The notes under the pieces: generated by a model | Databases searched by the model: none | The model's input: the letters and a program-made list of their open reading frames with translations, nothing else | What the model was told of the DNA's origin: nothing | Translations under genes and position numbers: made by a program | Assembly (NCBI GenBank): GCA_964493305.1 | Contig: CAZBLW010000001.1 | Span: 113,484 to 177,483, forward strand | Source: an uncultured Gammaproteobacteria bacterium | Lineage (GTDB): Bacteria > Patescibacteriota > Patescibacteriia > S139-126 | DNA: 64,000 bases | Direction of reading: 5' to 3' | Shown here: piece by piece, positions 36,423 to 54,389 of the stretch | Numbering within the stretch: position 1 is the stretch's first letter | Layout of the letters: each line of letters starts with the position of its first letter

Positions 36423-36513
36423 GGAGAGGTCGCATAGTGGTCTAGTGCGGTTGCTTGGAGAGCAACTAACGGTTCATAGCCGTTCGAGGGTTCGAATCCC
36501 TCCCTCTCCGCCA
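36423..36513 (+). tRNA. tRNA-Ser (anticodon GGA)
   Basis: GGAGAGGTCGCATAGTGG..., anticodon loop TTGGAGA, long variable arm, T-arm GAGGGTTCGAATCCCTC, CCA. Confidence 0.85.
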
Positions 36514-36614: not shown

Positions 36615-36836
36615 ATGCAATCACATAATATGAAAGATGAGGCAGTAAAACTTGGAAAGAATCTTAAACGTATCCGTATCGAAAAAGGGATATCACAGGT
36701 TGATATAGCCCGATCTCTTAAAGTTAGTAGAGGTTTTATAAGTAATATAGAAAATGGTAAGACGAATCCTACGTTAGCAACCATTGCTAGAATAGCCAAA
36801 GCAGTGGGTGTATCAACCAATGAGCTTTTAAAATAA
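36615..36836 (+). CDS. XRE-family helix-turn-helix transcriptional regulator
   Basis: 73 aa; GISQVDIARSLKVSRGFISNIENGKTNP HTH_3 pattern. Confidence 0.75.
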   Translation: MQSHNMKDEAVKLGKNLKRIRIEKGISQVDIARSLKVSRGFISNIENGKTNPTLATIARIAKAVGVSTNELLK

Positions 36837-38426: not shown

Positions 38427-38432
38427 GAATGT

Positions 38433-39890
38433 ATGTATATATCAAAAATTAAATTTCATAATTTTAAAGGATTCAAGGGGGATCACGAGCTTAATTTTGA
38501 TAAAGGTATAAATTTTTTTGTTGGTGACAATAATTGTGGTAAATCAACGGTTTTTGAAGCAATCGATTTTATTTGTGCAAAGAAGGAAAGAAATGAAGTT
38601 ATTACTAAAACGGAAATTGAAGGTGATGATTTTGTTTCAGTTGAGATTGAATTTAGGGGTGAGGATATTAAACCTCTTATTGCCACAGAGGCATTAAAGA
38701 AATATGAATCATCTATTATAGAAGCCGCTGACCAGACTATTTTACGGGTGATGCGATCCAGTGAAGAAACAGAAATTACGCAGGGTGGTAAAAAAAAGAA
38801 TCTTGACATTAAGAATGTTCGTGTTTTTAACCCAACTTCTAGCCAGTTTGAAAACCCTACAGGAATTGATAATACAATTACAGCATTATTTGATGCACAA
38901 TTTGTTTGGGCTGATACTAATCCTGGCGATATTTCAGATTTTTCAAAAACTAAAATATGCGGAAAAATTATAAATGTGATCACTCAGGATTTTGTTAACT
39001 CTCAAACTTGGAAAAAATTTAGGGATTCCCATAAAGAAACTTTTGGCGATGGAGCAAATAGTCTAGCCACCACACTTAAACCGATTGAAGAGAAATTAAA
39101 GACTATTTTAACAGAACAGTACGGGGATACTGAGGTTAGATTTAGTTTTTCTCTCCCAGAAATAGAGAGTTTTTTTAAAACCGGAAATATTGATTTGTCG
39201 GAAGATGGTATTGAGACGAAGAGCTCGGAAAAAGGTACGGGTATGCAAAGGGCATTGGCCCTAGCACTTATTCAAGTATATGCTGACATTTCATCATCTA
39301 ATGGGGAAGATATTTCAAAGCCAATTCTATTCTTTATTGATGAACCGGAGACTTTTTTACATCCAAGAGCACAAAATAAGCTTCTTGATGCACTAGAGAA
39401 AATATCGGATAAATCACAAATTTTTATTATCACTCATTCCCCATATTTGTTAAAAAAATATAAAAAAGAAACCCATTCAATGAATGTTTTTTCAAAAGAG
39501 GCAGGATTAAACAAGGCTGAAGAAGGTAAGGAGTTTGATTTATTTGGAACGTCGAGTCCTACATGGGGAGAAATTAACTATTATGCCTTTGGAGTTCTGT
39601 CTGTCGAATTTCATAACGAACTGTATGGTTTTATTCAAGCAAAGGCGATTCTGGAAGATGAAAAAAATTATTTTGAAGAAGAATTCGAAAAGTACTTAGT
39701 TAATAAAGGCATTGTGCAGGATCAGCCATATATCCGTCTGAAAAAAGATGGCACTACAGAAAACCAGACAAGAACTTTACCAACGAAAATTAGAAATATT
39801 ATTCACCATCCAGACAACACATACAATACAAAATATACTGACGAAGAATTAAAAAGCTCTATCGAGTCTCTAATACCGCTATTGAAATGA
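38433..39890 (+). CDS. ABC/AAA15-type ATPase with C-terminal HEPN-like R-N-x3-H motif; PrrC/RloC-like candidate, a restriction-linked ORF nested in the type I R-M operon
   Basis: Walker [10 protein letters not shown] (aa 31-39), Walker B/D-loop [13 protein letters not shown]-loop ITHSP. C-terminal ~150 aa end with [11 protein letters not shown] (R-N-I-I-H-H). Confidence 0.5.
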
Positions 39891-41086
39891 CTAAACATCA
39901 AAGTAAAATTGAAAAATTAATCAATCAGTTATGCCCACAAGGTGTGGAATTTAAAGAGTTGGGGCAAATTTTGGATTATGAACAGCCAACTAAATATATA
40001 GTTAATTCCACTCGGTATAATGATGATTATGAAATCCCTGTTTTAACTGCTGGTCAAAGTTTTATTTTAGGTTACACAGATGAAATTGAGGGAGTATATG
40101 AATCTGGTAAAAAAAATCCAGTAATTATTTTTGATGATTTTACAACATCATTTCATTGGGTTGATTTTAATTTTAAAGTAAAGTCATCAGCAATGAAAAT
40201 GTTGAGGCCACATGAAGATGTTAAAGTAGACTTTAAATTTGTATATTATGCCATGAAGTGCATTAATTATGTTCCGCAAGATCATGCACGTCATTGGATA
40301 TCAAAGTATTCAAAATTTAAGATTCCTTTTCCACCTATCACAATTCAACAGGAAATAGTTCGTGTGCTAGACTCTTTTACAGAGCTGGAAGCAGAGCTGG
40401 AAGCAGAGCTGGAAGCAGAGCTGGAAGCAAGAAAGAGGCAATATGAGTATTATCGAAATGAATTATTTATATTTGATCAGAGCGTGAAATTTAAACATAT
40501 CAAAGAACTTTCTTTAGAAACTTTTTGGATAATGCCAGCAACTCCAAATTTTACATCCGATGGTAATGTGCCATATATCACATCAAAAAATATAAGAAGT
40601 GGTAACATAGATTTTACGAACGTAAAGAAGATATCAAGACAATCTTTTTTAAATATATCTAAAAATCGACCAATAGTTCGAGATGATATTTTGATAAGTA
40701 TGATTGGTACTATAGGTGAAGTTGCACGTGTTAAAGATAGTGATTTGGAGTTTTATGGTCAAAATATGTATCTTGTAAGATTGAATCAGGAGAAGATAGA
40801 CGTAGGTTATTTTTTACACTTTTTTGACTCAGATAAAATGAAAAACTACTTTGGCTCTATAAAGAATAGGTCCAGTCAAGGTTATCTAAAGGCTGGTCAA
40901 GTAGAATCTATTAAAATTCCAGTACCAGTATTAAGTGAACAAAAAAGAATAGCGGCCATATTAGATAAATTCGATGACCTTGTTAATGATATTTCAATTG
41001 GATTGCCAGCTGAAATTAAAGCTAGAAAATTACAGTATGAGTATTACAGAAGTAAACTTTTAACTTTTGCAGAATATGCCAGTTAA
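39887..41086 (+). CDS. hsdS: Type I restriction-modification system specificity subunit
   Basis: 399 aa; two TRDs separated by a central conserved region (…[29 protein letters not shown]) and a C-terminal conserved region ([16 protein letters not shown]). Confidence 0.85.
40382..40429 (+). repeat. Perfect 4x tandem 12-bp repeat (gagctggaagca) encoding (ELEA)4 in the central conserved region of hsdS
   Basis: Directly visible tandem repeat; in-frame (12 nt). Confidence 0.9.
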
Positions 41087-44000
41087 TAAATACAATTTAG
41101 TTGCCGAAAATTCCCAAAGCACAGTAGTAGCGGAATATACACCAGACAAAAAGCGCTCTAAAAATTACCAAAGCGAGGCAGAATTAGAGAGTGCTTTTAT
41201 CGAGTTACTTAAAACGCAGGCCTATGATTATTTGACTATTACGTCTGAGGATGATCTGATATCAAATTTACGCAAGCAGTTGGAAAAACTTAATGGTTTT
41301 GAATTTAGTGATTCGGAATGGAGTCAGTTTTTTGAAAGTGAGATTGCTAATCCAAATCAGGGTATTGAAGAAAAGACAGAAACTATTCAAGAAGATTATA
41401 TTAAAAATTTAACCCGTGATGACGGCACGGTTAAAAATGTATATCTTTTGAAAAAAGATAATATACACGACAATAATTTACAGGTCATTAACCAATATGC
41501 AACTGAGAAGGGTCAACGAGCTAATCGCTATGATGTAACAGTTCTTGTTAATGGTTTACCACTAGTACACATTGAGCTTAAGCGTCGTGGTGTAGCTATA
41601 CAGGAGGCTTTCAATCAAATTAATCGTTACCAACGAGAGAGTTTTTGGGCTGCGTCTGGCCTTTTTGAATATGTACAGTTATTTGTCATTTCCAATGGCA
41701 CTCATACAAAATACTATAGCAACACTACTCGTTTAGAACATATCAAAGAATCAGTTGAAGGATCAGTCAAAAAGGGCAAAAAGACAAGTAATAGTTTTGA
41801 ATTTACAAGCTGGTGGGCGGATGCTACTAACCGTCCAATTATGGATTTAATGGACTTTGGTAAAACTTTTTTTGCCAAGCATGCTATTTTGAATATTTTG
41901 ACTCGCTATTGTGTATTTACAACAGATCGCTTGTTGCTTGTTATGCGACCCTACCAAATTGTTGCAACAGAAAGAATATTAAATAGGGTAGAAGTTAGCA
42001 CAAACTACAAAAAACTTGGCACTGTTGAGGCCGGTGGGTATGTGTGGCATACTACTGGATCTGGCAAAACGTTAACCAGTTTTAAAACAGCTCAGTTAAT
42101 TAGTAAATTGTCAGATGTTGAAAAAGTATTATTTATTGTCGATCGTAAGGATTTAGATTATCAGACAATGCGGGAATATGACAAGTTTGAAAAAGGGGCG
42201 GCCAATAGTAACACCAGTACGGCAATTTTAAAAAAACAAATTGAAAATCCTAATACTCGTATAATTATTACTACTATCCAAAAGTTGGATCGTTTTATCG
42301 CCCGTAACGGAGGCCATAATATTTTCAACGGGCATGTTGTTTTAATTTTTGATGAATGTCATCGTTCTCAATTTGGTGAGATGCACGCAGCCATTACAAA
42401 GTCATTTAAAAATTATCACATCTTTGGTTTTACGGGTACGCCGATTTTTGCAGTTAACGCTTCATCAAGCGGGCGACCAGATTTAAGGACTACCGAGCAA
42501 GCCTTTGGTGATAAACTACATACCTATACTATTGTTGATGCTATTGCTGATAAAAACGTTTTGCCGTTTAAGGTTGATTATGTTTCTACGGTGCGAGAAG
42601 CGGAAGACATCGAAGACAAAAAGGTTAGTGATATTGATCGTGAGGCGGTACTGTCTTCGCCTGAACGTTTGTCTAAAATTGTTGGTTACATTCGTGAACA
42701 TTTTGATCAAAAAACTAAACGTAACAGTTTTTATAAACTAAAAGATAGACGTCTAGCTGGCTTTAATTCCATTTTTGCTGTTTCTTCAATTGACGTTGCT
42801 AAAAAGTATTATGCGGAATTCAAAAAGCAATTGGCTGATTTGCCAAGTGATAAACAGCTTAAAGTTGCTTTGATTTACAGCTTTGGTGTAAATGACGAAG
42901 ACGCTGACGGCATGATTGATGAAAATTTAGAAGATACCAGCGGACTGGATAAAAGTTCACGTGACTTTTTAGATAGTGCTATTTCAGATTATAATTTAAT
43001 GTTTGGCACTTCTTATGACACTTCTTCTGATAAGTTTCAAAATTACTATAAAGATGTAAGTCAGCGGGTAAAAGATAGGGAAATTGATATTCTTATCGTG
43101 GTCAATATGTTTTTGACTGGTTTTGATGCAACAACGCTTAATACTCTTTGGGTAGATAAAAACTTGCGATTGCATGGACTATTGCAGGCTTATTCTCGTA
43201 CCAATAGAATTCTAAATAGCATAAAAACATTTGGTAATATTATTTGCTTCCGTAATTTAGAAAAAGCAACTAATGAATCAATCGCTCTTTTTGGCGACAA
43301 GGAAGCAAGCGGTATTGTTCTTTTGAAATCATACGAGGAATATTATCATGGTTATAAAGACGGTAAAAAAGAAGTACGTGGTTATGAGAGTTTGGTTAAT
43401 GAGCTGTTAGAAAAGTTTCCTGTCAGCGAACGAATCATGGGCGAACAAGATCAGAAAGATTTTATTAGGCTATATAGTGCTATTTTAAGAGTGCGTAATA
43501 TTCTAGTAACCTTTGATGAGTTTGCTGGCAACGAGATTTTAACTGAGCGTGATGTTCAGGATTACCATAGCATGTATATTGATTTGTATAATGAGTTTAA
43601 AAAAGCGGTTGAAAATGAAAAAGAAAATATCAACGAGGATTTAGTATTTGAAATGGAGCTTATTAAACAGATTGAGATCAATATTGACTATGTTTTGGGA
43701 TTGATCAAAAAATATCATGAAGATCATACTAAGAATCGAGAAATTCTATTAGATATAAATAAGGCGATTGATTCTAGTGTTGGGTTACGTAATAAGAAAG
43801 ATCTCATCAATAAATTTATTACCTCCCTTGACGTTCATTCGGTTGTTGATGATGATTGGAAGAAATTTGTTGAAAAGAAGAAGCTTGAAGAGCTTGATGA
43901 AATCATTGCTAAGGAAAATCTTGATCGAGACGCAACTTATAAATTTATAAAAAATGCATTTCGTGATGGAGGTATTGCAACCGCTGGTACGGCCATAACT

Positions 44001-44126
44001 AAAGTTTTACCACCTGTATCTCGTTTTTCTCCGACTGGTGAGCGTAGTAAAAAGCGTGATAGTGTTTTAGGTAAACTAACAATTTTTTTTGAAAGATTCT
44101 TTGATATTTCAGAAGGTAATTTTTAA
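41067..44126 (+). CDS. hsdR: Type I restriction enzyme endonuclease/helicase subunit
   Basis: 1019 aa; Walker [13 protein letters not shown]-box FDECHRS, SF2 helicase motifs; overlaps the hsdS stop. Confidence 0.9.
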
Positions 44127-44134
44127 TATAGTTG

Positions 44135-45463
44135 CTATAGAGATAGTATTTTATTTTTAAAGCTAATTATTTTATTTCTCAATAAAATTTCACCATTTAG
44201 ACAAGCAAGTAAATCTCGCTTCTCCTGATCCTCACCCTCTCTTAAAATAAATTTTGCATAGTTATTAATATCGACGTCATTCACGTCGATATTATCATTT
44301 TTACCCGTAACCATATTTTGAAACTTTTTAAATCTCCGTATATCTGATTTAATCTTGTTTTGCATCGGGGATTTATTGAAATCGAATTCATCCGTGAGCT
44401 TTTGTAGTTGTTTGATCAAATCAGTTTCATTAATATATCCGCTTTTGCAGTACTTGTCTTTGGCTTTGGTGCATCCGTAATATACATGCCGGTTATACTC
44501 ACCGTTTTTCAATTTCTTGAATTTCTCAGTGGCAGAGATGCCTGATCCGCATAAACCGCATTTCATTATCTTGGTAAAAGCAAACTCAATATTTTCTCTC
44601 CTCACCAGTTGCGAGTTTTTCATCTGTTCCTGAACTTGATCAAACAATTCCTTAGTAATAATAGGTTGGTGTTTCCCCTGATACCAATTGCCTGACCCTC
44701 TGGGGTACTCAAACGGCCCGTAATAGAACGTATTCTCCAATAAGCGGTAGATATTACCCAGGCTCAAATGTTTCTTGCCTAGGGCTGTTCTAAAGTTCAA
44801 TTCAAACCGCAGCCAGTGATAGAGTTTTCTGCCTGACCATTTTTCATAGGCGACTTTTTCAAACATCTGCTTAATAACTGGCCCCCTCTCAGGATCAATC
44901 AAGCATTCTCCCTTATGGTCGACTCTTTTCTCTTTTAGATACCCTGTGGGAGGGCAGGTCGGCCATAAGCCCATCTCACATCTCGTTCTCAAACCTCTTT
45001 TGACATTAATGCCTCGGTTATCATTCTCCAGCTTGGCCTGAGAACAAAGTATCATGAGCAAAAACTTTTCATTGGGTGAATTACTGAATGTTTGTCCGAA
45101 TGTTCTGATGCCTAAAAGTTTTTTCGCATCCATAAGATCCACGAGCGATCCTAAATCACCAGCATTTCTTGATAACCTGTCCGGTGCCCAGGTGAGAATG
45201 GCATTGAATTTATCTTCGCGAATATCACGCAGGATCTCCCTAAACACCGGGCGCTTGTCTGAATCCTTGGCTGATTTTGCTTCACGCCGTATATCTATGA
45301 TTTCAAGATTCTCTCGCTCCGCTATCTGGAGCATTTCTTTTACCTGCGAATCAATGGACAGCGCCTGCCGCTCGTCTGATTCAGTGCTTTTCCGGGCATA
45401 TAAACAATACCTCAGCTTATCTGCCACCTGTATGGGATCCTTTTGTTTGGTAGTAATCTCCAT
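44135..45463 (-). CDS. Serine recombinase (resolvase catalytic domain + recombinase domain + zinc ribbon; small member of the large-serine-recombinase type)
   Basis: N-terminal YARKSTESDERQALSIDSQ catalytic Ser/Arg motif; C-terminal Cys cluster CGLCGSG...YYGCTKAKDKYC. Confidence 0.8.
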   Translation of the reverse strand: MEITTKQKDPIQVADKLRYCLYARKSTESDERQALSIDSQVKEMLQIAERENLEIIDIRREAKSAKDSDKRPVFREILRDIREDKFNAILTWAPDRLSRNAGDLGSLVDLMDAKKLLGIRTFGQTFSNSPNEKFLLMILCSQAKLENDNRGINVKRGLRTRCEMGLWPTCPPTGYLKEKRVDHKGECLIDPERGPVIKQMFEKVAYEKWSGRKLYHWLRFELNFRTALGKKHLSLGNIYRLLENTFYYGPFEYPRGSGNWYQGKHQPIITKELFDQVQEQMKNSQLVRRENIEFAFTKIMKCGLCGSGISATEKFKKLKNGEYNRHVYYGCTKAKDKYCKSGYINETDLIKQLQKLTDEFDFNKSPMQNKIKSDIRRFKKFQNMVTGKNDNIDVNDVDINNYAKFILREGEDQEKRDLLACLNGEILLRNKIISFKNKILSL

Positions 45464-45563
45464 GCCCCCATTAATGACAGAACCACCAGATTTGCTAAGC
45501 CCATTGCTGTCGATAACTTGTTGGCAACTTTTCTCTAGTTTTTATTAAGGAATACTAACGTTT

Positions 45564-47027
45564 TTAAATAAAATATATCCTTGGTACACGAGGGGGCTTT
45601 TCAGAAACACTATGTACTAAGTTGGAAAATGCGTCGACTAAATCGTCGTGTTTTTCTACGCCAAAATGAACGATCTGCTGTATCAGTTGTTCGGCTCCTT
45701 TTCTTGGAAACAGTACTTGTCCTGATTTGATGAGGTTAGCGGTCAGCACTAGGCGACTTCTCTTATCTTGATAACCGGGCCGGGTGGTCATGACGTGCCA
45801 CAACCCCTCGCTTTTTAATTGTTGCGGTAGGGCTTTTTGATACGCAACATCTTCGATGATAAACGTCGGAGGCAGACCATCTCTTTCATAACTTTTTTCC
45901 AGTAGCTTACAAGTATCAACGGTTTCGGGGAATGTCATGCGCCTATTGATGATTTTTGGAAGAATATATACACGATAACTCGTTTCAGTTTCATATAATA
46001 ATCCCAGTACCATAGCGGTATAGTCGGCAAGATTACTTTTTGAAATAGCGGGGTCAATGCCAATCCTTACTTCCATATGTGAGGAATAACCACTCTTAAA
46101 TTTTATTGGCGCCGGTATTTCATCATAGAAATGAATCCATTCCGGATAGATAGCTTGATCTTCGTCTGGAATAATATTCAGCAAGAATTCGCGTTGCCAA
46201 GCGATATCATCGCCAACTTTTCTTTTTTCAGCTTCAATGTCCTCACTGGTTGGATATTTGCCGGGCCATAAACATTTCCCTTTATTATCGATCAGGGGGA
46301 AATAAAGAAAGTTACCGTCAATGTTGTTATGTTCAGATTCGTCTTTCAAGCGCATGAGGAGCGAATCCTCGTGCAAGAGATTGCCCACCACGATTAACCG
46401 TGTGTTTTTATCCCCGGCTGGAATAACCTCGCCCTTGAGCCATTGATACGTCTTATTTCTGCCTTCCCGTGTCTTGGTTGAGGTCATATCTTCCACGTCA
46501 TCGCAAATAATCAAATCCGGACGATGTTCATGATGCCGAAGCCCCCGGATGCTTTGCTCAGTGGATGCTACGGTAATGCGCGCATCGGTATTGGAAAATA
46601 CCAGGGAATGCGAGCCCCATTCGTCGTTATCTTCTTGAAACGGGCCAAGGTCTTTTTTTAACAAATCATTATCCTCAAGCTCCCGGCGTAAATTCATCAT
46701 GTGTTGCTTGGCCTGGGTTTGGGTCTGGCAAAAAATGACCACAAACTTTTTTTGTTGTTTGCCTAAGATTGCCCAGATCGGATAAGCCGTGGTGATAACA
46801 GTAGATTTTCCTGATCCGCGGAAGGCGACCACAAACAGATTTTTATGGTCATTTATTTCGAGGAGATGGATAATCTCTTTTTGAAAATCTGCCGTGGCAT
46901 ATTTGACGTAGTGGGCGTAGTAGAAGTGAAAGAAGTAAGAAAAACTTTCCTTAGTGATGGCTATTCGTACTTTCTTGTCTTTCGTCATCTGCTCCACCAG
47001 GTCCTGTGGAATTATTTCGGTTGTCAT
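45564..47027 (-). CDS. terL: Phage terminase large subunit
   Basis: 487 aa; Walker A AFRGSGKST in the N-terminal ATPase; C-terminal RNase-H-like nuclease region with acidic residues (IGIDPA...). Confidence 0.8.
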   Translation of the reverse strand: MTTEIIPQDLVEQMTKDKKVRIAITKESFSYFFHFYYAHYVKYATADFQKEIIHLLEINDHKNLFVVAFRGSGKSTVITTAYPIWAILGKQQKKFVVIFCQTQTQAKQHMMNLRRELEDNDLLKKDLGPFQEDNDEWGSHSLVFSNTDARITVASTEQSIRGLRHHEHRPDLIICDDVEDMTSTKTREGRNKTYQWLKGEVIPAGDKNTRLIVVGNLLHEDSLLMRLKDESEHNNIDGNFLYFPLIDNKGKCLWPGKYPTSEDIEAEKRKVGDDIAWQREFLLNIIPDEDQAIYPEWIHFYDEIPAPIKFKSGYSSHMEVRIGIDPAISKSNLADYTAMVLGLLYETETSYRVYILPKIINRRMTFPETVDTCKLLEKSYERDGLPPTFIIEDVAYQKALPQQLKSEGLWHVMTTRPGYQDKRSRLVLTANLIKSGQVLFPRKGAEQLIQQIVHFGVEKHDDLVDAFSNLVHSVSEKPPRVPRIYFI

Positions 47028-47421
47028 CTGGTTTAATGTTTAATGGTAAAATTTGAGCCAATTGCAAGGCCTTGTGTACAATTTCGGTTTGCGAGGGGGT
47101 TAATTCTCCGGTATCGTCGAATTTGGAAGTGACCTCGACCTTGTCTTTGAATTTTGGATTCCGGTGGCGGAGCCAAAAGCTGATGGCTGACCAGTTTTTC
47201 TCTTTGATGAGCGTGAGGAGTTGGCTCTCGCTCATGTCATTCACTAGCGCCTCACCCTCAGCTAAGGCCTCGTCCATATCCTGACTGAATGTTTTATCTT
47301 CTCGTTTCCAGCGATATACGCTGTTGCGGGAAATACCTGTTTTTTCGCAAGCAACCTGCACAATGGGTATTTTTCGCAGTTCATCGAGAAAACCGTTTTT
47401 TACCTTATTTTTCTTGGCCAT
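46951..47421 (-). CDS. HTH protein, terminase small subunit-like
   Basis: 156 aa; N-terminal HTH (VACEKTGISRNSVYRWKRED); located immediately upstream of terL, with its 3' end overlapping the terL 5' end by ~77 nt in another frame. Confidence 0.5.
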   Translation of the reverse strand: MAKKNKVKNGFLDELRKIPIVQVACEKTGISRNSVYRWKREDKTFSQDMDEALAEGEALVNDMSESQLLTLIKEKNWSAISFWLRHRNPKFKDKVEVTSKFDDTGELTPSQTEIVHKALQLAQILPLNIKPDDNRNNSTGPGGADDERQESTNSHH

Positions 47422-48685
47422 ATACTTTTGCTTTAATACCTGTTAACCGCTCGTACCTCTTTATCGCTAAATCGCAAAAAATCGGTTCAAGCTCCATGGC
47501 ATAGACCTTTCGTTTTAATTGTTCCCCGGCGATAAGCGTACTGGCTGACCCGGAAAATGAATCAAGAATAATATCACCAGGCTTACTGCAGCGCCGGATC
47601 GCTTTTTCGTGGAGTTTCGGCGGCTTGCTGGTGGCGTGTTCGTATTTTTTGCCAGCCAAACGCTTCACCAGCCACACGTCCAGTTCATCCAGGCTTTCTT
47701 CCAACAGGTTATTCCCTGTGGTTATTTCCTTATTTAAGATTTCATTGAGATTTTTGATGGAGGGCGCAATGTATGGTTTTCCTTTCACGCCGTACACGGC
47801 TGGCTCATAGCATTTGTTAAACGCGGTCTGGGGTGTTGGGTTTTGTGAGTTTTTAATCCACAGACAGACACGTTTGTTCGCAATGCCAAGCTCTCGATAC
47901 AGTTCTTGCATCAGGCCTATATATGTCTGGTCGCACCAGTAGAAGATGTGGCAATCCGGCCTTGCCACCGATACGGCGGCAATAAGGGTGTCTTTAATGA
48001 ATTGTTTATATTCCTCATATGATCGGTTATCATTCACCACTCCACCGTAGTCCTTTTTTCCTCCAATGCCCTTGGTGTAATTAAGATTCAAATTATATGG
48101 AGGATCACTATATATAACCGATGCCCGGTCGTTGCCAAAGAGCCGCTTGAGGTTTTTGGGATCGGTTGAACTACCGCAGAGCAGTCGATGTGGTCCTAGC
48201 ACGATTAAGTCACCCAATTTAGTTTTGGGAGTTTTAATTTTTTTGATCTCCTGTTCAATGTCGAAATCTTCGTCTTTCACCTCCAGCTCGTTATCCCACA
48301 GGTGTGAAAGGTCAATCTGATCAAATCCCACATCAAGCAATAGATCCAAGTCAAAAGATTTCAGTTTTTCAAAATCCCAGTCACCGCCCAGGGCGTTGCT
48401 GGCTATGAGGTATTGTTTAGCCTCTTTTTCTGTGAGTTTGCGACTAGGGATACGGACATCAATAACTTCTTCCCCTCTGCCCAGAAATTGTAAGGCCTTG
48501 ATCCGCTGATGCCCGGCTAATATTTTCCCGTTAATATCAATAGCGGGAATTTCAACCAGATTGTATCTGGTGAGACTTTTTTTTAGATCCGACATTTGTT
48601 TGTCGGTGATGGTGCGAGGGTTCACGTCTTGGGGGATAAGATCGTTTACTCGCTTTTGCACGGTGTGCCACGTCAGTTTTTTCAT
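47405..48685 (-). CDS. ParB-like nuclease domain / DNA N6-adenine or N4-cytosine methyltransferase fusion
   Basis: N-terminal ParB/Srx motif (AGHQRIKA); MTase motif IV SDPPY followed by motif I LDSFSGSAST (beta-class order). Confidence 0.8.
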   Translation of the reverse strand: MKKLTWHTVQKRVNDLIPQDVNPRTITDKQMSDLKKSLTRYNLVEIPAIDINGKILAGHQRIKALQFLGRGEEVIDVRIPSRKLTEKEAKQYLIASNALGGDWDFEKLKSFDLDLLLDVGFDQIDLSHLWDNELEVKDEDFDIEQEIKKIKTPKTKLGDLIVLGPHRLLCGSSTDPKNLKRLFGNDRASVIYSDPPYNLNLNYTKGIGGKKDYGGVVNDNRSYEEYKQFIKDTLIAAVSVARPDCHIFYWCDQTYIGLMQELYRELGIANKRVCLWIKNSQNPTPQTAFNKCYEPAVYGVKGKPYIAPSIKNLNEILNKEITTGNNLLEESLDELDVWLVKRLAGKKYEHATSKPPKLHEKAIRRCSKPGDIILDSFSGSASTLIAGEQLKRKVYAMELEPIFCDLAIKRYERLTGIKAKVYGQEK

Positions 48686-48780
48686 ACGATGTTATTAATT
48701 ATTAAAAACTAACTGAGTCGATTATAAAGAAAAAACCGAGGCGTTGTGCTTCGGTTAAAAATATTGTTTAAATGTATAAG

Positions 48781-49725
48781 CTATATTTCTCCTAGTCTTT
48801 TTTTAGTTCTCGTAATGATAGTTCGAATACCATTGGTGGTTAATTTCGGCCATTTCTTTCTCATTTTAGCGAGTATATTAATATCGGTGGCTGTAAAACC
48901 AGAAAGACCTAACTCTCTATTCGGAGTAAGCTTCTTTTTTAATTCTTTATAGAGGTTATATACCATAATATCCCTGTCAAAAGTTTTCCATTCTTTGCTC
49001 TTGCCGATGTAGTCCTTTAACCGTTTTTGTTCCTCCGCTATCTGACCCCAGTTTTCCATGATGTCTTCTTTTTTGGTATGGCCGAGGATTTGCACAAATA
49101 GTTCCATTTGTTCAGTTTTTTCTTTTCGTTTCCAAGCAACATAAAAGTGAGGGGTGCGGTATTCCCTTCTGCCAAAAAAAATATATAGTTCCAAAAAATC
49201 CCTAAACCCTCGATCATTGTAATCAATGCCGAAGTGATTGAGTATCTCGTTGTAGGTTTGCCCATATACGGGTGGCAAGAATTTTTCTCTGAATTCATCC
49301 AACGCATCATATTCTTCGCTGGATATACGTTTTTTTCCGCCGGTAATGCGGAGTTTATTTTGTATGTATTCATCACTTCGCTCCATTTCCGCAAAGCGGT
49401 TCCAGAAATGTTCGTTCCAGGTTTTATATTGTTTATATTTTTTAAACGGTTTTCTGGGCAAGGGGCAACCCACTTCGGCAAAACGTTTCTTGAGCCAATC
49501 GATTTTTTCCAAAAACCATTGGTCCCGGATCATAGCTTGGGCCTTATAGTAGTTCTGGTCGTATATTTTACGGCTTTGCTTATTTTTCTTTATTTTTGTG
49601 GATTTCATGTGGATATTTAGCAGGTTGACAGATGTGGACAGTTCTGTATAATTATATATACCATGAATAAAACGAAAAAGATAGACTTGGCGGGTTACGC
49701 CTATATCCGTAATCAGGTTATCCAT
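48781..49725 (-). CDS. Hypothetical protein (true start probably the internal Met near 49605)
   Basis: 314 aa ORF; the first ~40 codons overlap the divergent repressor gene and its promoter, so a later start is likely; no recognisable motifs. Confidence 0.4.
   Translation of the reverse strand: MDNLITDIGVTRQVYLFRFIHGIYNYTELSTSVNLLNIHMKSTKIKKNKQSRKIYDQNYYKAQAMIRDQWFLEKIDWLKKRFAEVGCPLPRKPFKKYKQYKTWNEHFWNRFAEMERSDEYIQNKLRITGGKKRISSEEYDALDEFREKFLPPVYGQTYNEILNHFGIDYNDRGFRDFLELYIFFGRREYRTPHFYVAWKRKEKTEQMELFVQILGHTKKEDIMENWGQIAEEQKRLKDYIGKSKEWKTFDRDIMVYNLYKELKKKLTPNRELGLSGFTATDINILAKMRKKWPKLTTNGIRTIITRTKKRLGEI
49625..49652 (+). promoter_or_regulatory. Near-consensus sigma-70 promoter giving an essentially leaderless transcript for the LexA-like repressor
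   Basis: TTGACA (49625-49630) - 16 nt - TATAAT (49647-49652); ATG at 49663. Two ATGTGGA(Y)A direct repeats (49607 and 49632) overlap the promoter. Confidence 0.55.
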
Positions 49726-50280
49726 ACCGGGGTAACGCCGTCTTTGCGGGAAATAGGACGGGTTGTGGGTTATAATTCCCCTCGCTCCGTGCAGTTAATG
49801 CTTGAGAGGTTGCAGAGGCAGGGCCTGCTTTCATATGAGGATGGAATAATTAAGCTGTCTCCTCGTAAAAGAAAAAGCCAGGCTGAGCGAACCGTATCTG
49901 TACCCCTGGTGGGATCGGTGGCGTGTGGCATGCCGTCGCTGGCAGAACAGGAACCCGAGGCTATGATAGAGGTGTCAACCAAGTTGGCTACGCCGGGACA
50001 CATATATTTTCTACTCCGTGCACGAGGTACGTCCATGAACAAATCGGGTATTAAGGATGGCAATTTAGTTTTAGTGAGACAACAGCCTACTGCCGAAAGA
50101 GGAGACAAGGTTGTTGCACTAATAAATGATGAGGCAACAATAAAATTATTTTATCCTGAAAAAGATATGGTTGTCCTGAAACCTGATTCGACCGACAAGG
50201 AGCACAAACCAATTATTCTATCTGATGAATTTTTTATACAAGGGGTTGCGGTTGCATCCTTCCCCTCTGATATATACTAA
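49663..50280 (+). CDS. LexA-like / phage CI-like S24 peptidase repressor
   Basis: 205 aa; N-terminal LexA-type winged HTH (TPSLREIGRVVGYNSPRSVQLMLERLQRQGLL); cleavage-site-like VACG; Ser (RARGTSM) and Lys (EATIKL) catalytic dyad. Confidence 0.75.
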   Translation: MNKTKKIDLAGYAYIRNQVIHTGVTPSLREIGRVVGYNSPRSVQLMLERLQRQGLLSYEDGIIKLSPRKRKSQAERTVSVPLVGSVACGMPSLAEQEPEAMIEVSTKLATPGHIYFLLRARGTSMNKSGIKDGNLVLVRQQPTAERGDKVVALINDEATIKLFYPEKDMVVLKPDSTDKEHKPIILSDEFFIQGVAVASFPSDIY

Positions 50281-50457: not shown

Positions 50458-50811
50458 ATGCAATTAAAATGGACAGAGCGGATTCCGCTCACAAAAACCG
50501 GTGTTGATAAGATAAATTCAATTGCCGGCGTGTACCGTTTGATTTATAAAGAATCAGATGATAAGTATTACGTGTATTATGTCGGGCAAACGGACGATTT
50601 AAATGACAGGCTTTCCCAACATCTCTCGGACAACGAGGAAAACGAATGTTGCCAAAAACATCTCGATAAGTATACCTGCTATTTTCGAGCGGCTGCTATT
50701 TCAACGCAAGCCAATCGGGATGGTGCCGAAGTAGCACTCTATAATCAATATAAACCTACATGTGTTGAAAGAGTTCCTGATGTTGATCCAATTGAAATTA
50801 ATTTTGATTAA
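50458..50811 (+). CDS. GIY-YIG domain protein
   Basis: 117 aa; GVYRLIYK...YYVYYVGQTDDLNDRLSQH matches the GIY-X10-YVG...R...H pattern. Confidence 0.65.
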   Translation: MQLKWTERIPLTKTGVDKINSIAGVYRLIYKESDDKYYVYYVGQTDDLNDRLSQHLSDNEENECCQKHLDKYTCYFRAAAISTQANRDGAEVALYNQYKPTCVERVPDVDPIEINFD

Positions 50812-50813
50812 TT

Positions 50814-51125
50814 ATGTCAGAAACCGCATCGCATAAAAACACAAAAACCCGCGGATTGAAAGGCTCAAAAACTGAGATCAAAATCCCCGGGAACCGTCGA
50901 CTTGATGCAGGTACATCAAATCGTGCTCGAGAAGTTGAAAGAAGTGGCAATAAAAAATCGATTGCGAAAGCCGTAAGGCGCCTTAACAGTCAAACTAATA
51001 AGAAAAAGGAATTATTGGTGCCGACGCAAAATCTTGATATGGCAAAATCGGTTGCAAAAAAAGTTGCTAAAGGAAAAATATTGATCCAGAATCTATCTAG
51101 GACTCAGAGACGGTTTGTTGAATAA
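50814..51125 (+). CDS. Hypothetical highly basic protein
   Basis: 103 aa, Lys/Arg-rich, no motifs recognised. Confidence 0.35.
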   Translation: MSETASHKNTKTRGLKGSKTEIKIPGNRRLDAGTSNRAREVERSGNKKSIAKAVRRLNSQTNKKKELLVPTQNLDMAKSVAKKVAKGKILIQNLSRTQRRFVE

Positions 51126-51143: not shown

Positions 51144-51527
51144 ATGTCTACAACAACTCAGTTTATAACTGCTGATTTTTTGGATGGCGTCATCAAATCC
51201 ACTCTAGCGATTCTTTGGAATATATTTAAAAGTATCTGGCCTTCCATAAAATATTTCCTAATAGGTTTTACAATATATATTGCTGGTGGTGTGCTGTTGC
51301 AAATAATTATGTTGAAAGGTAGTGGCAATCGTCACAAGTTGTCAGCACATTTTAATAAAATAGTTGGCGCTCTCACATATGCCGTCTTTTTTATTTTATA
51401 TCTGTTTATCGCTTATAAAATATGGGGGCCTCAGGTAATTGATGATTTATGGTTTACTCTAATTGGAACGCTCTCTTTTATTTCAACGTGGCTATTTTTA
51501 AGACTCATAGGTTTTTGGTACTATTAG
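51144..51527 (+). CDS. Hypothetical membrane protein (3 TM helices)
   Basis: 127 aa, hydrophobic segments. Confidence 0.4.
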   Translation: MSTTTQFITADFLDGVIKSTLAILWNIFKSIWPSIKYFLIGFTIYIAGGVLLQIIMLKGSGNRHKLSAHFNKIVGALTYAVFFILYLFIAYKIWGPQVIDDLWFTLIGTLSFISTWLFLRLIGFWYY

Positions 51528-51543
51528 TTTATAGGTTATTTAT

Positions 51544-52218
51544 ATGGAGCTATCAGATGAATTAATTCAAAAATTCAAAGATTTAACCGAAAAAAAGCAG
51601 GGTGAAAAAATTTCTTGGGAAGAAGCAAAAGAAGGTGTGAGTAGTTTTTTGCGTCTGATGGAGCTTTTCTATAAACAGGCGACAATTGACCATAAACGTC
51701 AGTTGAAACTAAAGGAACATCCAAAGGGTTTTCATATTGAAGGTCAAGGATATACCTGCGCTATTTGTTATGGCTCCATATCCGATGAGGAAACGTGGTA
51801 TGACAAATGGGGTATCAAATGCCTCTTATGCCAAAAGGCTATAGATAAAAAGATAATCCCGGGCTCAGTAGCTAAAAATGATAACACTTGGTATTCGGAA
51901 CATGATCTCCATACTAGGTTCAATATCGACAAGCGTGCAATGAAAGAATTTGTTAAAGCAGGTGTTTTAAAACCACGTATCGTACCTAACGCTTCCGGTC
52001 GCCCACATGTGTATATTTTTATGATAAAGGATAATAAAGACACGCTCCCACCAAAACACTTAACCGAGTCGGAACATGTGAGTTATAAAGGTGAAGAAAA
52101 AGGCAGAATTCATATTGAGCCGTGGTACAGATTTGTTGATCCGTACAAACATTTAGAGGTGTATAAAATCATGAATTATTTAAATGTTGTAAATAAAAAT
52201 GAAACTCATATCAAATAG
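51544..52218 (+). CDS. Hypothetical protein with CxxC...CxxC zinc-finger motif
   Basis: 224 aa; CAICYG...CLLCQ. Confidence 0.4.
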   Translation: MELSDELIQKFKDLTEKKQGEKISWEEAKEGVSSFLRLMELFYKQATIDHKRQLKLKEHPKGFHIEGQGYTCAICYGSISDEETWYDKWGIKCLLCQKAIDKKIIPGSVAKNDNTWYSEHDLHTRFNIDKRAMKEFVKAGVLKPRIVPNASGRPHVYIFMIKDNKDTLPPKHLTESEHVSYKGEEKGRIHIEPWYRFVDPYKHLEVYKIMNYLNVVNKNETHIK

Positions 52219-53701
52219 AAGATGGAATTTAGATAGTGAAAAAGCCAGTCAAATAAAAAATTGGCTAATTGAGCATGGGGGCACGGCAGACGAAAAAGTT
52301 GGCGAGTATGAAAATTGGCGAGTTAGATATTCTGATGCTGTTTTTACTTACTATACAAAAGGGACTCTTTATGTCACTGACTCTAATGATGGTGCCCTTA
52401 ACGAAGCACACGAATTGGTAGATTCACTTGTCGGATCAAAATTTGTTGAACCTTCAAAAGAAGTTTTAATAGGTTTTGATGAAACAGGTAAAGGTGAGGT
52501 ACTCGGCCATGTGGTATTGGTTGGCGTATTAATTCCTGCTAATCTATATCATGAAATTGAGAAGGTAATAGGTGTCGCGGATACAAAAGTGAGCCATACT
52601 GTGGAGTATTGGGATGATATATTTAACAAAATAGATTTTTTTAGGTCAAAAGGCCTTCAATTTATTATTGAAAAAATTCCCCCATGGCATTTTGATCGTT
52701 ACAATATCAATAAGCTACTAGATATTACTTATCAACGAATTTTGCTGTCATATAGTACAAAATCTAACTTGTCAAAGACTAGGGTTGTTTTTGATGATTA
52801 CGGAATAGGATATAGTCTTAAGAGATATTTAAATGCTATATCTCAGGGAGGAGCAGAGATTATTAAAACAACAAAAGCGGATGATAAATATCTCGAATCA
52901 AGAGTAGCTTCGCTTATTGCAAAACGAGAGCAACAAAAAATAATGGCCGCTATATCCAGTAATCCAGAATTTAAAATAGAAACTCAAAGTATTGGTAGTG
53001 GTAATGCTGGTGACAAAAATACTGTTGGTTGGCTAAAATCCTGGTATGAGACTAATCATGATTGGCCGTGGTTTGTGAAACAATCATTTAAAACAATTGG
53101 AGATATAGAAGGACGTGTAAATAAAATACAAAAGGCCATACCTCCTATCAATGAACACTTATTATCAAAAGAATTCAGGGAAAAATTTGAAAGTGGTGAA
53201 TTAAACATACAATCTTTATCGGTTGTTTGCCCTTGCGGCGCAACTGCAAAAGCAATTAAATTAATTTATAAGGATAAAATTGTTACGGCTATCTGTGCAA
53301 GTTGTAAGAATAAATTACAAGACGCCGCACTGACTTTACGATATTATTGTGGACGCATTATTCCTGATACAAGTGTGATTTCAAGCGGTTTATTATCAAT
53401 GGATTTAGATTCCTCAAAATTTTTTGAAAACTTTACTTTTTTAATACATCCAACAGTTCGGCGTGAAAGTGATACCAAGGGGGGTAAAAGAGAATTTGAG
53501 CGTCTTGCTAATTTTGCGGCCATTGGGAGGATTAAATTGGAAGAGACGGGGTCAATTCTGGATCCAAAAAAATTGGATAACATATCACGTGACGAGTCAA
53601 TACTTATTGGTGCTATTGATTCTAAAGCTATTTTATTGACTAGGGATAATCAAATGAAAGGTATAGCTCAAGCAAAAAACCTTTTTGTAATAGAAGGCTA
53701 A
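52199..53701 (+). CDS. Multidomain protein with an RNase HII-like nuclease core and a C-terminal zinc ribbon
   Basis: Residues ~85-210: IGFDETGKGEVLGHVVLVGV (cf. RNase HII G-x-D-E-x-G-R-G-P-x-x-G-x-V-V), ADTKVS (cf. DSKKLS), VVFDDYG (cf. LIDGN). Later CPCG...CASC. Confidence 0.45.
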   Translation: MKLISNRRWNLDSEKASQIKNWLIEHGGTADEKVGEYENWRVRYSDAVFTYYTKGTLYVTDSNDGALNEAHELVDSLVGSKFVEPSKEVLIGFDETGKGEVLGHVVLVGVLIPANLYHEIEKVIGVADTKVSHTVEYWDDIFNKIDFFRSKGLQFIIEKIPPWHFDRYNINKLLDITYQRILLSYSTKSNLSKTRVVFDDYGIGYSLKRYLNAISQGGAEIIKTTKADDKYLESRVASLIAKREQQKIMAAISSNPEFKIETQSIGSGNAGDKNTVGWLKSWYETNHDWPWFVKQSFKTIGDIEGRVNKIQKAIPPINEHLLSKEFREKFESGELNIQSLSVVCPCGATAKAIKLIYKDKIVTAICASCKNKLQDAALTLRYYCGRIIPDTSVISSGLLSMDLDSSKFFENFTFLIHPTVRRESDTKGGKREFERLANFAAIGRIKLEETGSILDPKKLDNISRDESILIGAIDSKAILLTRDNQMKGIAQAKNLFVIEG

Positions 53702-53868
53702 TTATAAATGTGACAAACGACTGTAACTTTATAATTGATTATAGTGTCACTTTTGTCACCTTTTAAATATTAGGCGCACGAGGATCTTGCTGTATGATAT
53801 AATAAAAGTACTTTGGAAAGCCTTACAGGGGTTGCCTGATTGAGGTTCCAGCCCGAGGTAGCCCGCCA

Positions 53869-53904
53869 TTACTAAAGTTGTGACGTAAGTCACAAGTTTA
53901 GTAA
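53869..53904. other. Near-perfect 16-bp stem hairpin (ttactaaagttgtgac-gtaa-gtcacaagtttagtaa)
   Basis: Inverted repeat read directly from the sequence, just inside the right end of the island. Confidence 0.7.
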
Positions 53905-53927
53905 TAGTGAATGCGGAAGTTGGGATT

Positions 53928-54017
53928 CGAACGGGTGCGAGCGAGATATGAGCGTCAGCGAATAATCGAGCGACAGACAATCCGAGTTGGCACAGGATTG
54001 GCTGGCACCCAGGACAA
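53928..54017 (-). repeat. Conserved ~90-nt core element, copy B (reverse complement of 261-350)
   Basis: 84/90 nt identical to copy A. Bracketed by GGGATTCGAAC (antisense of the tRNA-Ser T-arm) at 53922-53932 and by the sense 19-nt tRNA-Ser 3' fragment at 54038-54056. Confidence 0.8.
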
Positions 54018-54037
54018 GGAGCTAAAAGTTCCGCGTA

Positions 54038-54056
54038 AATCCCTCCCTCTCCGCCA
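54038..54056 (+). repeat. 19-nt direct repeat of the tRNA-Ser 3' end (attR-like) with ~45 nt of tRNA-flank-like sequence after it
   Basis: aatccctccctctccgcca is identical to the last 19 nt of both tRNA-Ser genes. The following ttaaacttcgctaacg...ttaattttttatacatatatttaa is ~80% identical to the 54328-54375 flank. Confidence 0.8.
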
Positions 54057-54140
54057 TTAAACTTCGCTAACGATTCGTTTAATTTTTTATACATATATTT
54101 AATTCAATATTCCAGATTCTTAATTCTATATTCCAATCAC

Positions 54141-54229
<89 letters not shown>

Positions 54230-54315
54230 CCAACTTCGCGCCTGTCGGCGCTTCGCTGGATAGGCGAGAAATTAGATAGTTGATATTGAGTTAAGCGGAG
54301 CAAAGCGGAGTTTAA

Positions 54316-54327
54316 CCCTCTCCGCCA
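54316..54327 (+). repeat. Third partial copy (12 nt) of the tRNA-Ser 3' end plus a flank copy
   Basis: ccctctccgcca followed by tccaacttagctaacgctttacttaattttttatacatacatttaaac. Confidence 0.7.
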
Positions 54328-54389
54328 TCCAACTTAGCTAACGCTTTACTTAATTTTTTATACATACATTTAAACAAATAATTTTTTTA

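Follow-up and report, generated by a model that had tools for sequence, protein, structure and literature searches.

We identified a predicted two-headed nuclease, here called RNH-PIN, in a 64,000-nucleotide stretch of DNA deposited as an uncultured Gammaproteobacteria bacterium (GTDB lineage Patescibacteriota). The stretch, called the window throughout, covers positions 113,484 to 177,483 of contig CAZBLW010000001.1 in assembly GCA_964493305.1. RNH-PIN almost certainly joins an RNase H3-type module, a C4 zinc ribbon, and a PIN domain in one polypeptide, as judged from sequence comparisons and structure models. From the genomic context, we lean toward the view that the RNH-PIN family is a stand-alone defense nuclease associated with restriction-modification (R-M) that moves horizontally with R-M systems and integrative elements. 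The gene and its domains are as follows.

52199 to 53701, plus strand: RNH-PIN, complete open reading frame (ORF) with an ATG start, 500 amino acids, RNase H3-like/zinc ribbon/PIN fusion (ORF list, homologs, AlphaFold2 [AF2] model).
52199 to 52453, plus strand: TBP-like N-terminal substrate-binding domain of the RNase H3 type, residues 1 to 85 (phmmer, NCBIfam rnhC, Foldseek).
52454 to 53134, plus strand: type-2 RNase H catalytic domain, residues 86 to 312, with D94, E95, D199, D/E228, the G97-K98-G99 loop, E100, K130, and N269 (Pfam, Foldseek, residue mapping).
53216 to 53314, plus strand: C4 zinc ribbon, residues 340 to 372, with C344, C346, C366, and C369 (cysteine conservation, Pfam, AF2).
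53351 to 53698, plus strand: PIN nuclease domain, residues 385 to 500, with D390, E423, D425, D465, and D483 (Foldseek, profile against PDB, conservation).

More than 400 full-length homologs were retrieved, and their alignment begins at the same first residue (MKLISNR.W...), which confirms the ATG start. The full-length AF2 model, built from an input of 27 homologs, was confident along the whole chain (pLDDT 90.7, pTM 0.86).

The N-terminal 312 residues resemble RNase H3. The Pfam model RNase_HII (PF01351) matched residues 91 to 299 with an E value of 3.6e-18 and 66.6 bits against a cutoff of 25.8 bits. This match is far beyond chance. In phmmer, the closest solved relative was RNase H3 of Thermovibrio ammonificans (Ta-RNase H3; 4py5_A) with an E value of 9e-10, and the archaeal RNases HII ranked after it. 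The alignment paired residues 18 to 262 with residues 12 to 238 of the chain. Because it starts at residue 18, the match includes the N-terminal domain of RNase H3. The equivalog models for the housekeeping enzymes scored below their cutoffs. NCBIfam RnhB (TIGR00729) gave 74.5 bits against 123.3, and further RnhB models, PRK00015 included, gave 11 to 36 bits against cutoffs of 167 to 285. NCBIfam RnhC (TIGR00716) gave 41.3 bits against 161.2, with the alignment beginning at residue 15. When the full model was compared with the PDB by Foldseek, the first matches were Ta-RNase H3, Aquifex RNase H3, Pyrococcus RNase H2, and Bst-RNase HIII (E values of 7e-13 to 6e-11). RNase H2 and H3 structures matched at E values of 1e-13 to 1e-8, and PIN domains, which match the C terminus, came lower in the list. 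The matches to 4py5, 3vn5, and 2d0a span about 300 columns.

Residues were mapped with the phmmer alignment to 4py5_A and the published structure of Ta-RNase H3 with its substrate (PMC4132731). In that enzyme, E84 occupies the place of the junction-sensing tyrosine of RNase H2 and contacts two RNA 2'-OH groups (PMC4132731). RNH-PIN has E100 at this position. The tyrosine of the RNase H2 "GSGY" motif is replaced by N269 (SGN). We therefore regard residues 1 to 312 as RNase H3-like and not RNase HII, because of the N-terminal domain, the GKG loop, the equivalence of E100 with E84, and the change of Tyr to Asn. The expected chemistry would be RNase H1/H3-like cleavage of the RNA in RNA:DNA hybrids, with no incision at single ribonucleotides.

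The C-terminal part appears to hold the second nuclease. The four cysteines C344, C346, C366, and C369 sit on two beta-hairpins in the AF2 models, and zinc-ribbon Pfam models (Zn_ribbon_3) match 11 of 17 members of the family. Residues 336 to 500 were also modeled separately (pLDDT 92.3). The best Foldseek match of this model was the PIN domain of MJ1533 (3i8o; E value 7.6e-6, TMt 0.75, root mean square deviation 2.0 A), and the first 30 matches were all PIN domains, with their three-layer alpha/beta/alpha fold. After 3i8o came PINA (5f4h), TTHA0540 (3ix7), SSO1118, and AF0591, then HARP, SMG6, Nob1, and Utp24. A profile of the C-terminal sequences retrieved two of the same folds from the PDB (3i8o, E value 0.0047; AF0591, 1o4w, E value 0.0074). 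In these alignments, D390, E423, D465, and D483 fall on the acidic PIN residues of MJ1533 and AF0591. At the sequence level, 3 of 17 members match Pfam PIN (PF01850), with a best E value of 3e-4. By these comparisons and models, the C-terminal domain is predicted to be a PIN domain of the PilT-N/VapC class with an intact acidic pocket, joined to the RNase H3 head via the zinc ribbon.

Conservation was counted in 193 non-identical full-length homologs. The mapped residues and their counts are as follows.

D94: equivalent to Ta-RNase H3 D78, carboxylate; 191/193.
E95: equivalent to Ta-RNase H3 E79, carboxylate; 190/193.
G97-K98-G99: equivalent to the GXG loop of Ta-RNase H3; G97 and G99 each kept in at least 190/193.
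E100: equivalent to Ta-RNase H3 E84, which binds two RNA 2'-OH groups; 192/193.
K130: equivalent to Ta-RNase H3 K113, DSK loop; 190/193.
D199: equivalent to Ta-RNase H3 D180, carboxylate; 192/193.
D/E228: equivalent to Ta-RNase H3 E206, carboxylate; 192/193.
N269: in place of the RNase H2 tyrosine; 192/193.
C344, C346, C366, and C369: zinc ribbon; at least 192/193 each.
D390: PIN; 189/193.
E423: PIN; 185/193.
D425: PIN; 174/193, with E in a further 7.
D465: PIN; 183/193.
D483: PIN; 185/193.

The RNase H and PIN active sites are thus both at least 90% conserved. Judging from these counts, purifying selection acts strongly on both, and each nuclease head appears to be active.

An earlier note on this DNA had described RNH-PIN as an RNase HII-like catalytic core between unknown domains. 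The ORF and the quoted motifs are present where it placed them: GFDETGKGEVLGHVV at residues 92 to 106, ADTKVS at 127 to 132, VVFDDYG at 196 to 202, and CPCG...CASC at 344 to 347 and 366 to 369. A type-2 RNase H core with conserved acidic residues is indeed there, but it is RNase H3-like instead, with a TBP-like N-terminal domain, GKG, E100, and Asn for Tyr. The core had been drawn from about residue 85 to 210 and extends to about 312. Since the catalytic domain ends there, the extra C-terminal region amounts to about 190 amino acids rather than about 280. The unknown flanks can be named: the N-terminal one is the TBP-like RNase H3 domain, and the C-terminal one is the zinc ribbon plus the PIN domain. 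Two of the three acidic motifs of the note carry carboxylates. GFDETGKGE contains the first and second (D94 and E95) together with the GXG loop, and VVFDDYG contains the third (D199). The remaining one, ADTK, is instead the "DSK" phosphate-binding loop with the conserved K130, and the fourth carboxylate, D228 within KADD, had been overlooked. The C4 zinc ribbon is borne out by the cysteine counts. Structure prediction with Foldseek, which the note proposed as a check, recovered the RNase H fold with Ta-RNase H3 (4py5) among the first matches. The acidic positions, on whose conservation the note had staked its reading, are kept in the homologs (RNase H carboxylates, at least 190/193).

The family is rare and patchy, and it is spread across many bacterial and archaeal phyla at about 40 to 70% identity. 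A search of 5.8 billion proteins returned 427 matches; the best 120 are nearly all full length (482 to 530 amino acids) and 48 to 72% identical. Among the named sources are Zixibacteria, Elusimicrobia, Kosmotoga, Thermoplasmatales, and "Ca. Nitrosotenuis." Only 136 clusters at E values of 1e-30 or less came out of an exhaustive profile search of 1.84 billion representatives. About 20 of these are full-length clusters, and the search also gave a set of proteins of 300 to 320 amino acids confined to the RNase H3-like part. A degenerate-pattern scan with two peptide motifs retrieved 31 full-length loci from a 185,579-species genome collection, which is a sample and not an exhaustive census. With one genome per species, about 31 species carry the fused form; they represent about 15 bacterial and about 10 archaeal lineages, many of them thermophilic, and identity across these lineages is 40 to 58%. 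A genome scan with a single protein as the query gave no match, and an alignment-based scan recovered the loci. Archaeal members are roughly 50% identical to bacterial ones, which, given the patchiness, points to horizontal transfer.

The stand-alone RNase H3-like relatives (300 to 320 amino acids) are 35 to 48% identical to residues 1 to 313 of RNH-PIN. One of them, P0138, reaches 48% across residues 1 to 313. They form a clade (L035 to L041, for example L035:9971-10894) from unclassified bacterial metagenome-assembled genomes (MAGs), and around the 307-amino-acid members the order gcvP-PBP1-X-ADH-aldolase-ABC is kept in five MAG species. The stand-alone relatives look housekeeping, and the fused form likely descends from this housekeeping clade. 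Its own neighbors vary, in contrast to the fixed gcvP/PBP1/ADH synteny of the closest stand-alone relatives (307 to 320 amino acids). A sister family (P0196 and similar proteins, 489 to 534 amino acids) was also seen. It is about 33% identical and of similar length, its four zinc cysteines are replaced, and its C terminus has diverged.

The viral and plasmid collections were empty of the family. RNH-PIN had no match in PHROGs, none by tblastn in 50,697 phage records and 72,556 plasmids, and none in a scan of IMG/VR contigs. A phage or plasmid origin of the family was rejected on the basis of these searches. No paper reached by full-text literature searches describes an RNase H-PIN fusion, and the main text of a PIN superfamily survey does not mention one. 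The single domains are well known. The RNase H3-zinc ribbon-PIN fusion, its spread across both prokaryotic domains, and its place within type I R-M operons are new to the literature and defense databases that were searched.

Homologs recur inside or beside type I R-M operons. Loci chosen by peptide patterns were dereplicated at 90% identity, which left 77 with at least one neighbor. A type I R-M gene lies within three genes of RNH-PIN in 26 of these 77 loci and immediately adjoins it (hsdM, hsdS, or hsdR) in 22. The adjoining hsd gene is on the same strand in 20/22 loci, and the junction is -4 to +2 nucleotides in 16/26. The gene orders seen, with X for RNH-PIN, are M-X-S-R, M-S-X, and M-S-R-X. 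In "Ca. Nitrosotenuis," RNH-PIN sits between hsdM and hsdS with junctions of 4 and 1 nucleotides (order M-X-S-R).

A Pfam census of 129 neighbors placed the type I R-M domains at the top, followed by Cas1, DUF4411 with IrrE, GmrSD, N6_N4 methyltransferase with AlwI, and resolvases. Single loci add AlwI R-M with DUF4238, ThiF/E2-like genes, DUF1156-DUF499, SNF2-NOV_C, and Mrr_N. All-against-all clustering, in 31 and then 77 loci, found no recurrent neighbor family besides hsdM, hsdS, and hsdR. We therefore treat RNH-PIN as a single-gene module with no obligate partner. A conserved partner gene was considered and rejected, since the hsd genes alone recur and p224, the gene directly upstream in the window, is shared only with the near-identical contigs L127 and L128.

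In the window, RNH-PIN is the last gene of a plus-strand block on a mobile element, next to a type I R-M operon. The features around it are as follows.

36840 to 44126, plus strand: type I R-M operon with hsdM, an embedded ABC ATPase (485 amino acids), hsdS, and hsdR (Pfam, PADLOC).
44135 to 49725, minus strand: element core with a large serine recombinase, TerL, TerS, a ParB-fused N6/N4 DNA methyltransferase, and p314 (PHROGs: integrase, terminase subunits, methyltransferase).
49625 to 49652, plus strand: sigma-70 consensus, 12/12 (TTGACA-16-TATAAT; promoter scan).
49663 to 50280, plus strand: LexA/S24-type repressor gene (Pfam Peptidase_S24 and LexA_DNA_bind).
50458 to 50811, plus strand: GIY-YIG gene (Pfam; weak PADLOC PDC-S14/UzuA and PHROGs phrog_2937).
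50814 to 51125, plus strand: p103 (ORF).
51144 to 51527, plus strand: p127, membrane protein (ORF).
51544 to 52218, plus strand: p224, Cys-rich, with CAICYG...CLLC pairs (ORF).
54038 to 54056, plus strand: candidate att scar, a 19-nucleotide copy (AATCCCTCCCTCTCCGCCA) that repeats without mismatch the 3' ends of tRNA-Ser(GGA) at 36423 to 36513 and of tRNA-Ser(TGA).

The serine recombinase gene begins 8 nucleotides past the end of hsdR. The sigma-70 consensus lies 11 nucleotides before the LexA-like gene and also overlaps p314 (48781 to 49725, minus strand) at its 5' coding end; this divergent gene starts 73 nucleotides beyond. The block headed by this promoter and the repressor is divergent from the element core and ends with RNH-PIN. 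The successive gaps from the GIY-YIG gene through p103, p127, and p224 to RNH-PIN are 2, 18, 16, and -20 nucleotides, so that p224 overlaps the start of RNH-PIN by 20 nucleotides. The proteins p103, p127, and p224 had no match in Pfam, PADLOC, or PHROGs. Among the loci, p224 was found only in L127 and L128.

The same element type carries the gene elsewhere. L127 holds this element at 88 to 95% nucleotide identity; its RNH-PIN protein is the same as that of the window, and tRNA-Ser(TGA) again follows directly downstream of the gene. Its homology to the window ends at 53869, 168 nucleotides past the RNH-PIN stop. L045 holds a diverged element, with a recombinase 62%, a TerL 45%, and a TerS 50% identical to those of the window. 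Its RNH-PIN homolog (59%) lies downstream of an S24 repressor among a Type ISP R-M gene, PycTM, and DUF2130. Elements of this type therefore carry the gene recurrently. The element (44135 to 50280, L045, and L127) has no genes for capsid, portal, or tail and resembles a phage satellite or a decayed prophage. What it carries is variable defense cargo: the GIY-YIG to RNH-PIN genes in the window, and the Type ISP R-M gene, PycTM, and DUF2130 in L045. The GC content at third codon positions is 0.236 in RNH-PIN, 0.42 to 0.49 in the element core, and 0.22 to 0.28 in host genes. Composition was indecisive as a test of element membership, as the L045 homolog is clearly inside the element yet also lower in GC than the core.

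The region is bounded by tRNA-Ser sequences. The 36.5- to 54.1-kb segment is bracketed by tRNA-Ser(GGA) and the 19-nucleotide copy, and RNH-PIN is the last ORF before tRNA-Ser(TGA) at 54141 to 54228. The string CCCTCTCCGCCA is present four times in the window, where 0.08 occurrences would be expected; further copies of the tRNA-Ser 3' end are the 3' end of tRNA-Ser(TGA) itself and 54309 to 54338. Partial copies of the 3' end with its flank (54038 to 54109 and 54309 to 54380), 83% identical over 65 nucleotides, lie on either side of tRNA-Ser(TGA). In L127, a second serine recombinase and type I R-M element occupies the site after tRNA-Ser(TGA). The tRNA-Ser site looks like an integration hot spot, and the 3'-end copies look like att scars of successive integrations. 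The earlier note had placed RNH-PIN at an island terminus, on a mobile element near a GIY-YIG protein and an R-M/Abi module. Both observations are borne out by the tRNA-Ser boundary and by the type I R-M operon and its embedded ABC ATPase.

Several other features of the window were observed. The embedded ABC ATPase (38433 to 39890, plus strand; AAA_15/AAA_21) lies between hsdM and hsdS and is Old/AriA/GajA-like in PADLOC, without a Toprim domain. It is itself a "guilt-by-embedding" defense candidate of the HEC-01 to HEC-04 kind. A 73-amino-acid helix-turn-helix (XRE-like) ORF (36615 to 36836, plus strand) follows directly after tRNA-Ser(GGA), 3 nucleotides before hsdM. It may encode a controller protein of the R-M operon. 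A near-perfect 16-bp hairpin (TTACTAAAGTTGTGAC-GTAA-GTCACAAGTTTAGTAA; 53869 to 53904) begins exactly where the L127 homology breaks. The GC-rich stretch after it (within 53869 to 54037) is missing from L127 and has tRNA/tmRNA-like strings (GGGATTCGAACGGG). A structured RNA or tmRNA at 53.8 to 54.1 kb was rejected, as Rfam (E values of 0.1 or less) and ARAGORN find the tRNA alone. The 112-amino-acid minus-strand ORF at 53756 to 54094 is probably spurious.

RNH-PIN shares features with several known systems. The Aquificae-type RNases H3 (Ta-RNase H3, 4py5; Aquifex aeolicus, 3vn5) and Bst-RNase HIII (2d0a) likewise have a TBP-like N-terminal domain followed by a type-2 RNase H domain. They also share the DEDE/DEDD carboxylates, the GXG loop, the 2'-OH-binding Glu, and the DSK-loop lysine. 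They differ in that identity is about 23%, RNH-PIN has the extra 190-amino-acid zinc ribbon and PIN extension, and its context is of the defense type, not housekeeping. RNase HII (RnhB; PF01351) has the same catalytic fold and four acidic residues, and its Pfam domain is matched at full length. In RNH-PIN, however, GRG is changed to GKG and the GSGY Tyr to Asn, the N-terminal domain is present, and the length is 500 amino acids rather than about 200. The PilT-N-type PIN domains (MJ1533, 3i8o; TTHA0540, 3ix7; PINA, 5f4h; AF0591, 1o4w) and VapC have the same fold and four aligned acidic residues as the C-terminal domain. Identity to them is about 20%, the PIN domain of RNH-PIN is C-terminal to a zinc ribbon and an RNase H3 head, and no VapB-like antitoxin adjoins it.

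Three precedents make a defense role plausible. More than once, genes within type I R-M operons turned out to be defense systems, as with TgvAB (PMC11411939) and the HEC systems, and to this comes the "guilt-by-embedding" argument (bioRxiv 10.1101/2024.01.29.577857). In the RnlA family, a TBP-like hybrid-binding domain is fused to HEPN RNases (PMC3710099). The lactococcal abortive-infection protein AbiI has a predicted RNase HII domain (PMC13064643). RNH-PIN resembles PrrC/RloC, TgvAB, and the HEC and PDC candidates of Payne et al. in its place within hsd operons, where it is co-oriented and translationally coupled, and in being a predicted RNase-type effector. RNH-PIN is unrelated to these in sequence and fold, has no ABC ATPase, HEPN, or GmrSD domain, and is often outside type I operons. 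AbiI and the RnlA-family toxins are precedents for an RNase H2 fold or a TBP-like hybrid-binding domain in anti-phage proteins. They have no detectable sequence similarity to RNH-PIN (no PADLOC match and no plasmid tblastn match), and the partner domain is PIN in the latter as opposed to HEPN or unknown.

Taken as a whole, a two-headed nuclease that serves as a stand-alone defense module by acting on hybrids is the explanation in which our belief slightly outweighs our doubt. In this mechanism, the RNase H3 head would engage the RNA:DNA hybrids of invaders. At the same site, the PIN head would then cut single-stranded RNA, a flap, or a displaced strand. The outcome would be a block of invader replication or abortive infection. 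This specific hybrid-targeting mechanism is rather doubtful. The family may, a little less doubtfully but still short of probable, be a one-gene immune system, new among those of bacteria and archaea. Its RNase H3 module, put to this use by exaptation, would recognize invader hybrids (origin R-loops, primers, or reverse-transcription intermediates), and these would be destroyed, or abortive RNA cleavage triggered, via the PIN head, as a second line behind type I R-M. The earlier note had offered replication initiation, anti-defense, and defense as roles. Context favors the last, and the other two have no specific support.

The main rival casts RNH-PIN as an R-M accessory or guard in physical partnership with the type I enzyme, in the manner of PrrC and EcoprrI, and not as an autonomous defense gene. 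Either it would be a latent PIN RNase that is freed on inhibition of the R-M complex by a phage, or it would act as an RNase H and remove R-loops that stand in the way of HsdR translocation. RNH-PIN does lie between or after hsdM and hsdS with junctions of -4 to +2 nucleotides in most associated loci, a position analogous to that of prrC, which is almost exclusively embedded in type I R-M systems (bioRxiv 10.1101/2024.01.29.577857). This role is nevertheless unlikely: no hsd gene is found within three genes in 51/77 loci, RNH-PIN also adjoins type II, IIS, ISP, and other systems, and the associated type I systems are very diverse (23 to 31% identity). In the window, the gene is 8 kb from hsdR and inside another element. 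Such a location could suggest a role in the element's own life cycle, in primer or R-loop processing for replication or as an addiction toxin. RNase H acts at ColE1-type origins. The copies in the window, L045, and L127 are on an element of the recombinase/terminase/LexA type, apparently in a repressor-headed block, and Pfam and PHROGs recognize no replication genes on it. We consider this role quite unlikely, as most family members are in R-M operons and not on such elements, the phage records, plasmids, IMG/VR, and PHROGs had no match, and no antitoxin-like neighbor is conserved.

A housekeeping role is very unlikely. RNase H and a 5'-flap nuclease are the classic primer-removal pair, and a paralog for Okazaki-primer removal or ribonucleotide excision, with the PIN domain as a FEN-like flap nuclease, would fit the intact catalytic residues and the housekeeping look of the closest stand-alone relatives. 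The distribution, however, is sporadic, with about 50% identity across domains of life, and the neighborhoods are variable and of the defense type. The PIN domain is of the PilT-N/VapC class and not FEN (best fold matches 3i8o, PINA, and 3ix7), and the H2 junction tyrosine required in ribonucleotide excision repair is missing. The earlier note's view that this is not the housekeeping enzyme is upheld by the RnhB and RnhC equivalog scores below cutoff, the patchy cross-domain distribution, and the variable, defense-type neighborhoods. An anti-defense nuclease of the element, destroying host guide RNA:DNA hybrids or retron/DRT cDNA products, is barely credible. Several host immune systems pass through RNA:DNA hybrid intermediates, and the window gene is on a mobile element, but the family is absent from phage and viral collections and its main home is host R-M operons. 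The element-replication, housekeeping, and anti-defense roles are less consistent with the distribution.

Several points weigh against the stand-alone defense reading itself. We infer both the substrates of the two heads and any control of the PIN head by the RNase H head. A protein so closely coupled in translation to hsdM and hsdS could instead serve the R-M complex itself. The 51/77 loci without type I genes within three genes count here too, and as many contigs are short, the true fraction is uncertain. The type I enrichment was judged against the general rarity of hsd genes and not against a computed background. The 126 fetched loci had their ORFs called with a crude greedy picker, and the hsdM, hsdS, and hsdR hidden Markov models were iterated from the window's own proteins. 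No family in PADLOC-DB v2, PDC candidates included, matched RNH-PIN at E values of 0.1 or less, and membership in a known defense family was rejected on this basis.

The RNH-PIN family is a good candidate for a new defense family. RNase H enzymes are regarded as housekeeping factors of replication and repair. Here, a complete RNase H3 module is fused to a second nuclease and circulates horizontally inside R-M operons in both prokaryotic domains. Even if the role is not defense, a conserved hybrid nuclease with two predicted active sites could serve as a reagent. If it is defense, the family would provide a concrete test case for "guilt-by-embedding." It would be compact, with one gene of 1.5 kb, would occur largely in lineages with many thermophiles and archaea among them, and would be the first defense system with a hybrid-specific RNase H3 as its sensor. 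RNA:DNA hybrids would then join the invader signatures that are read by immune systems.

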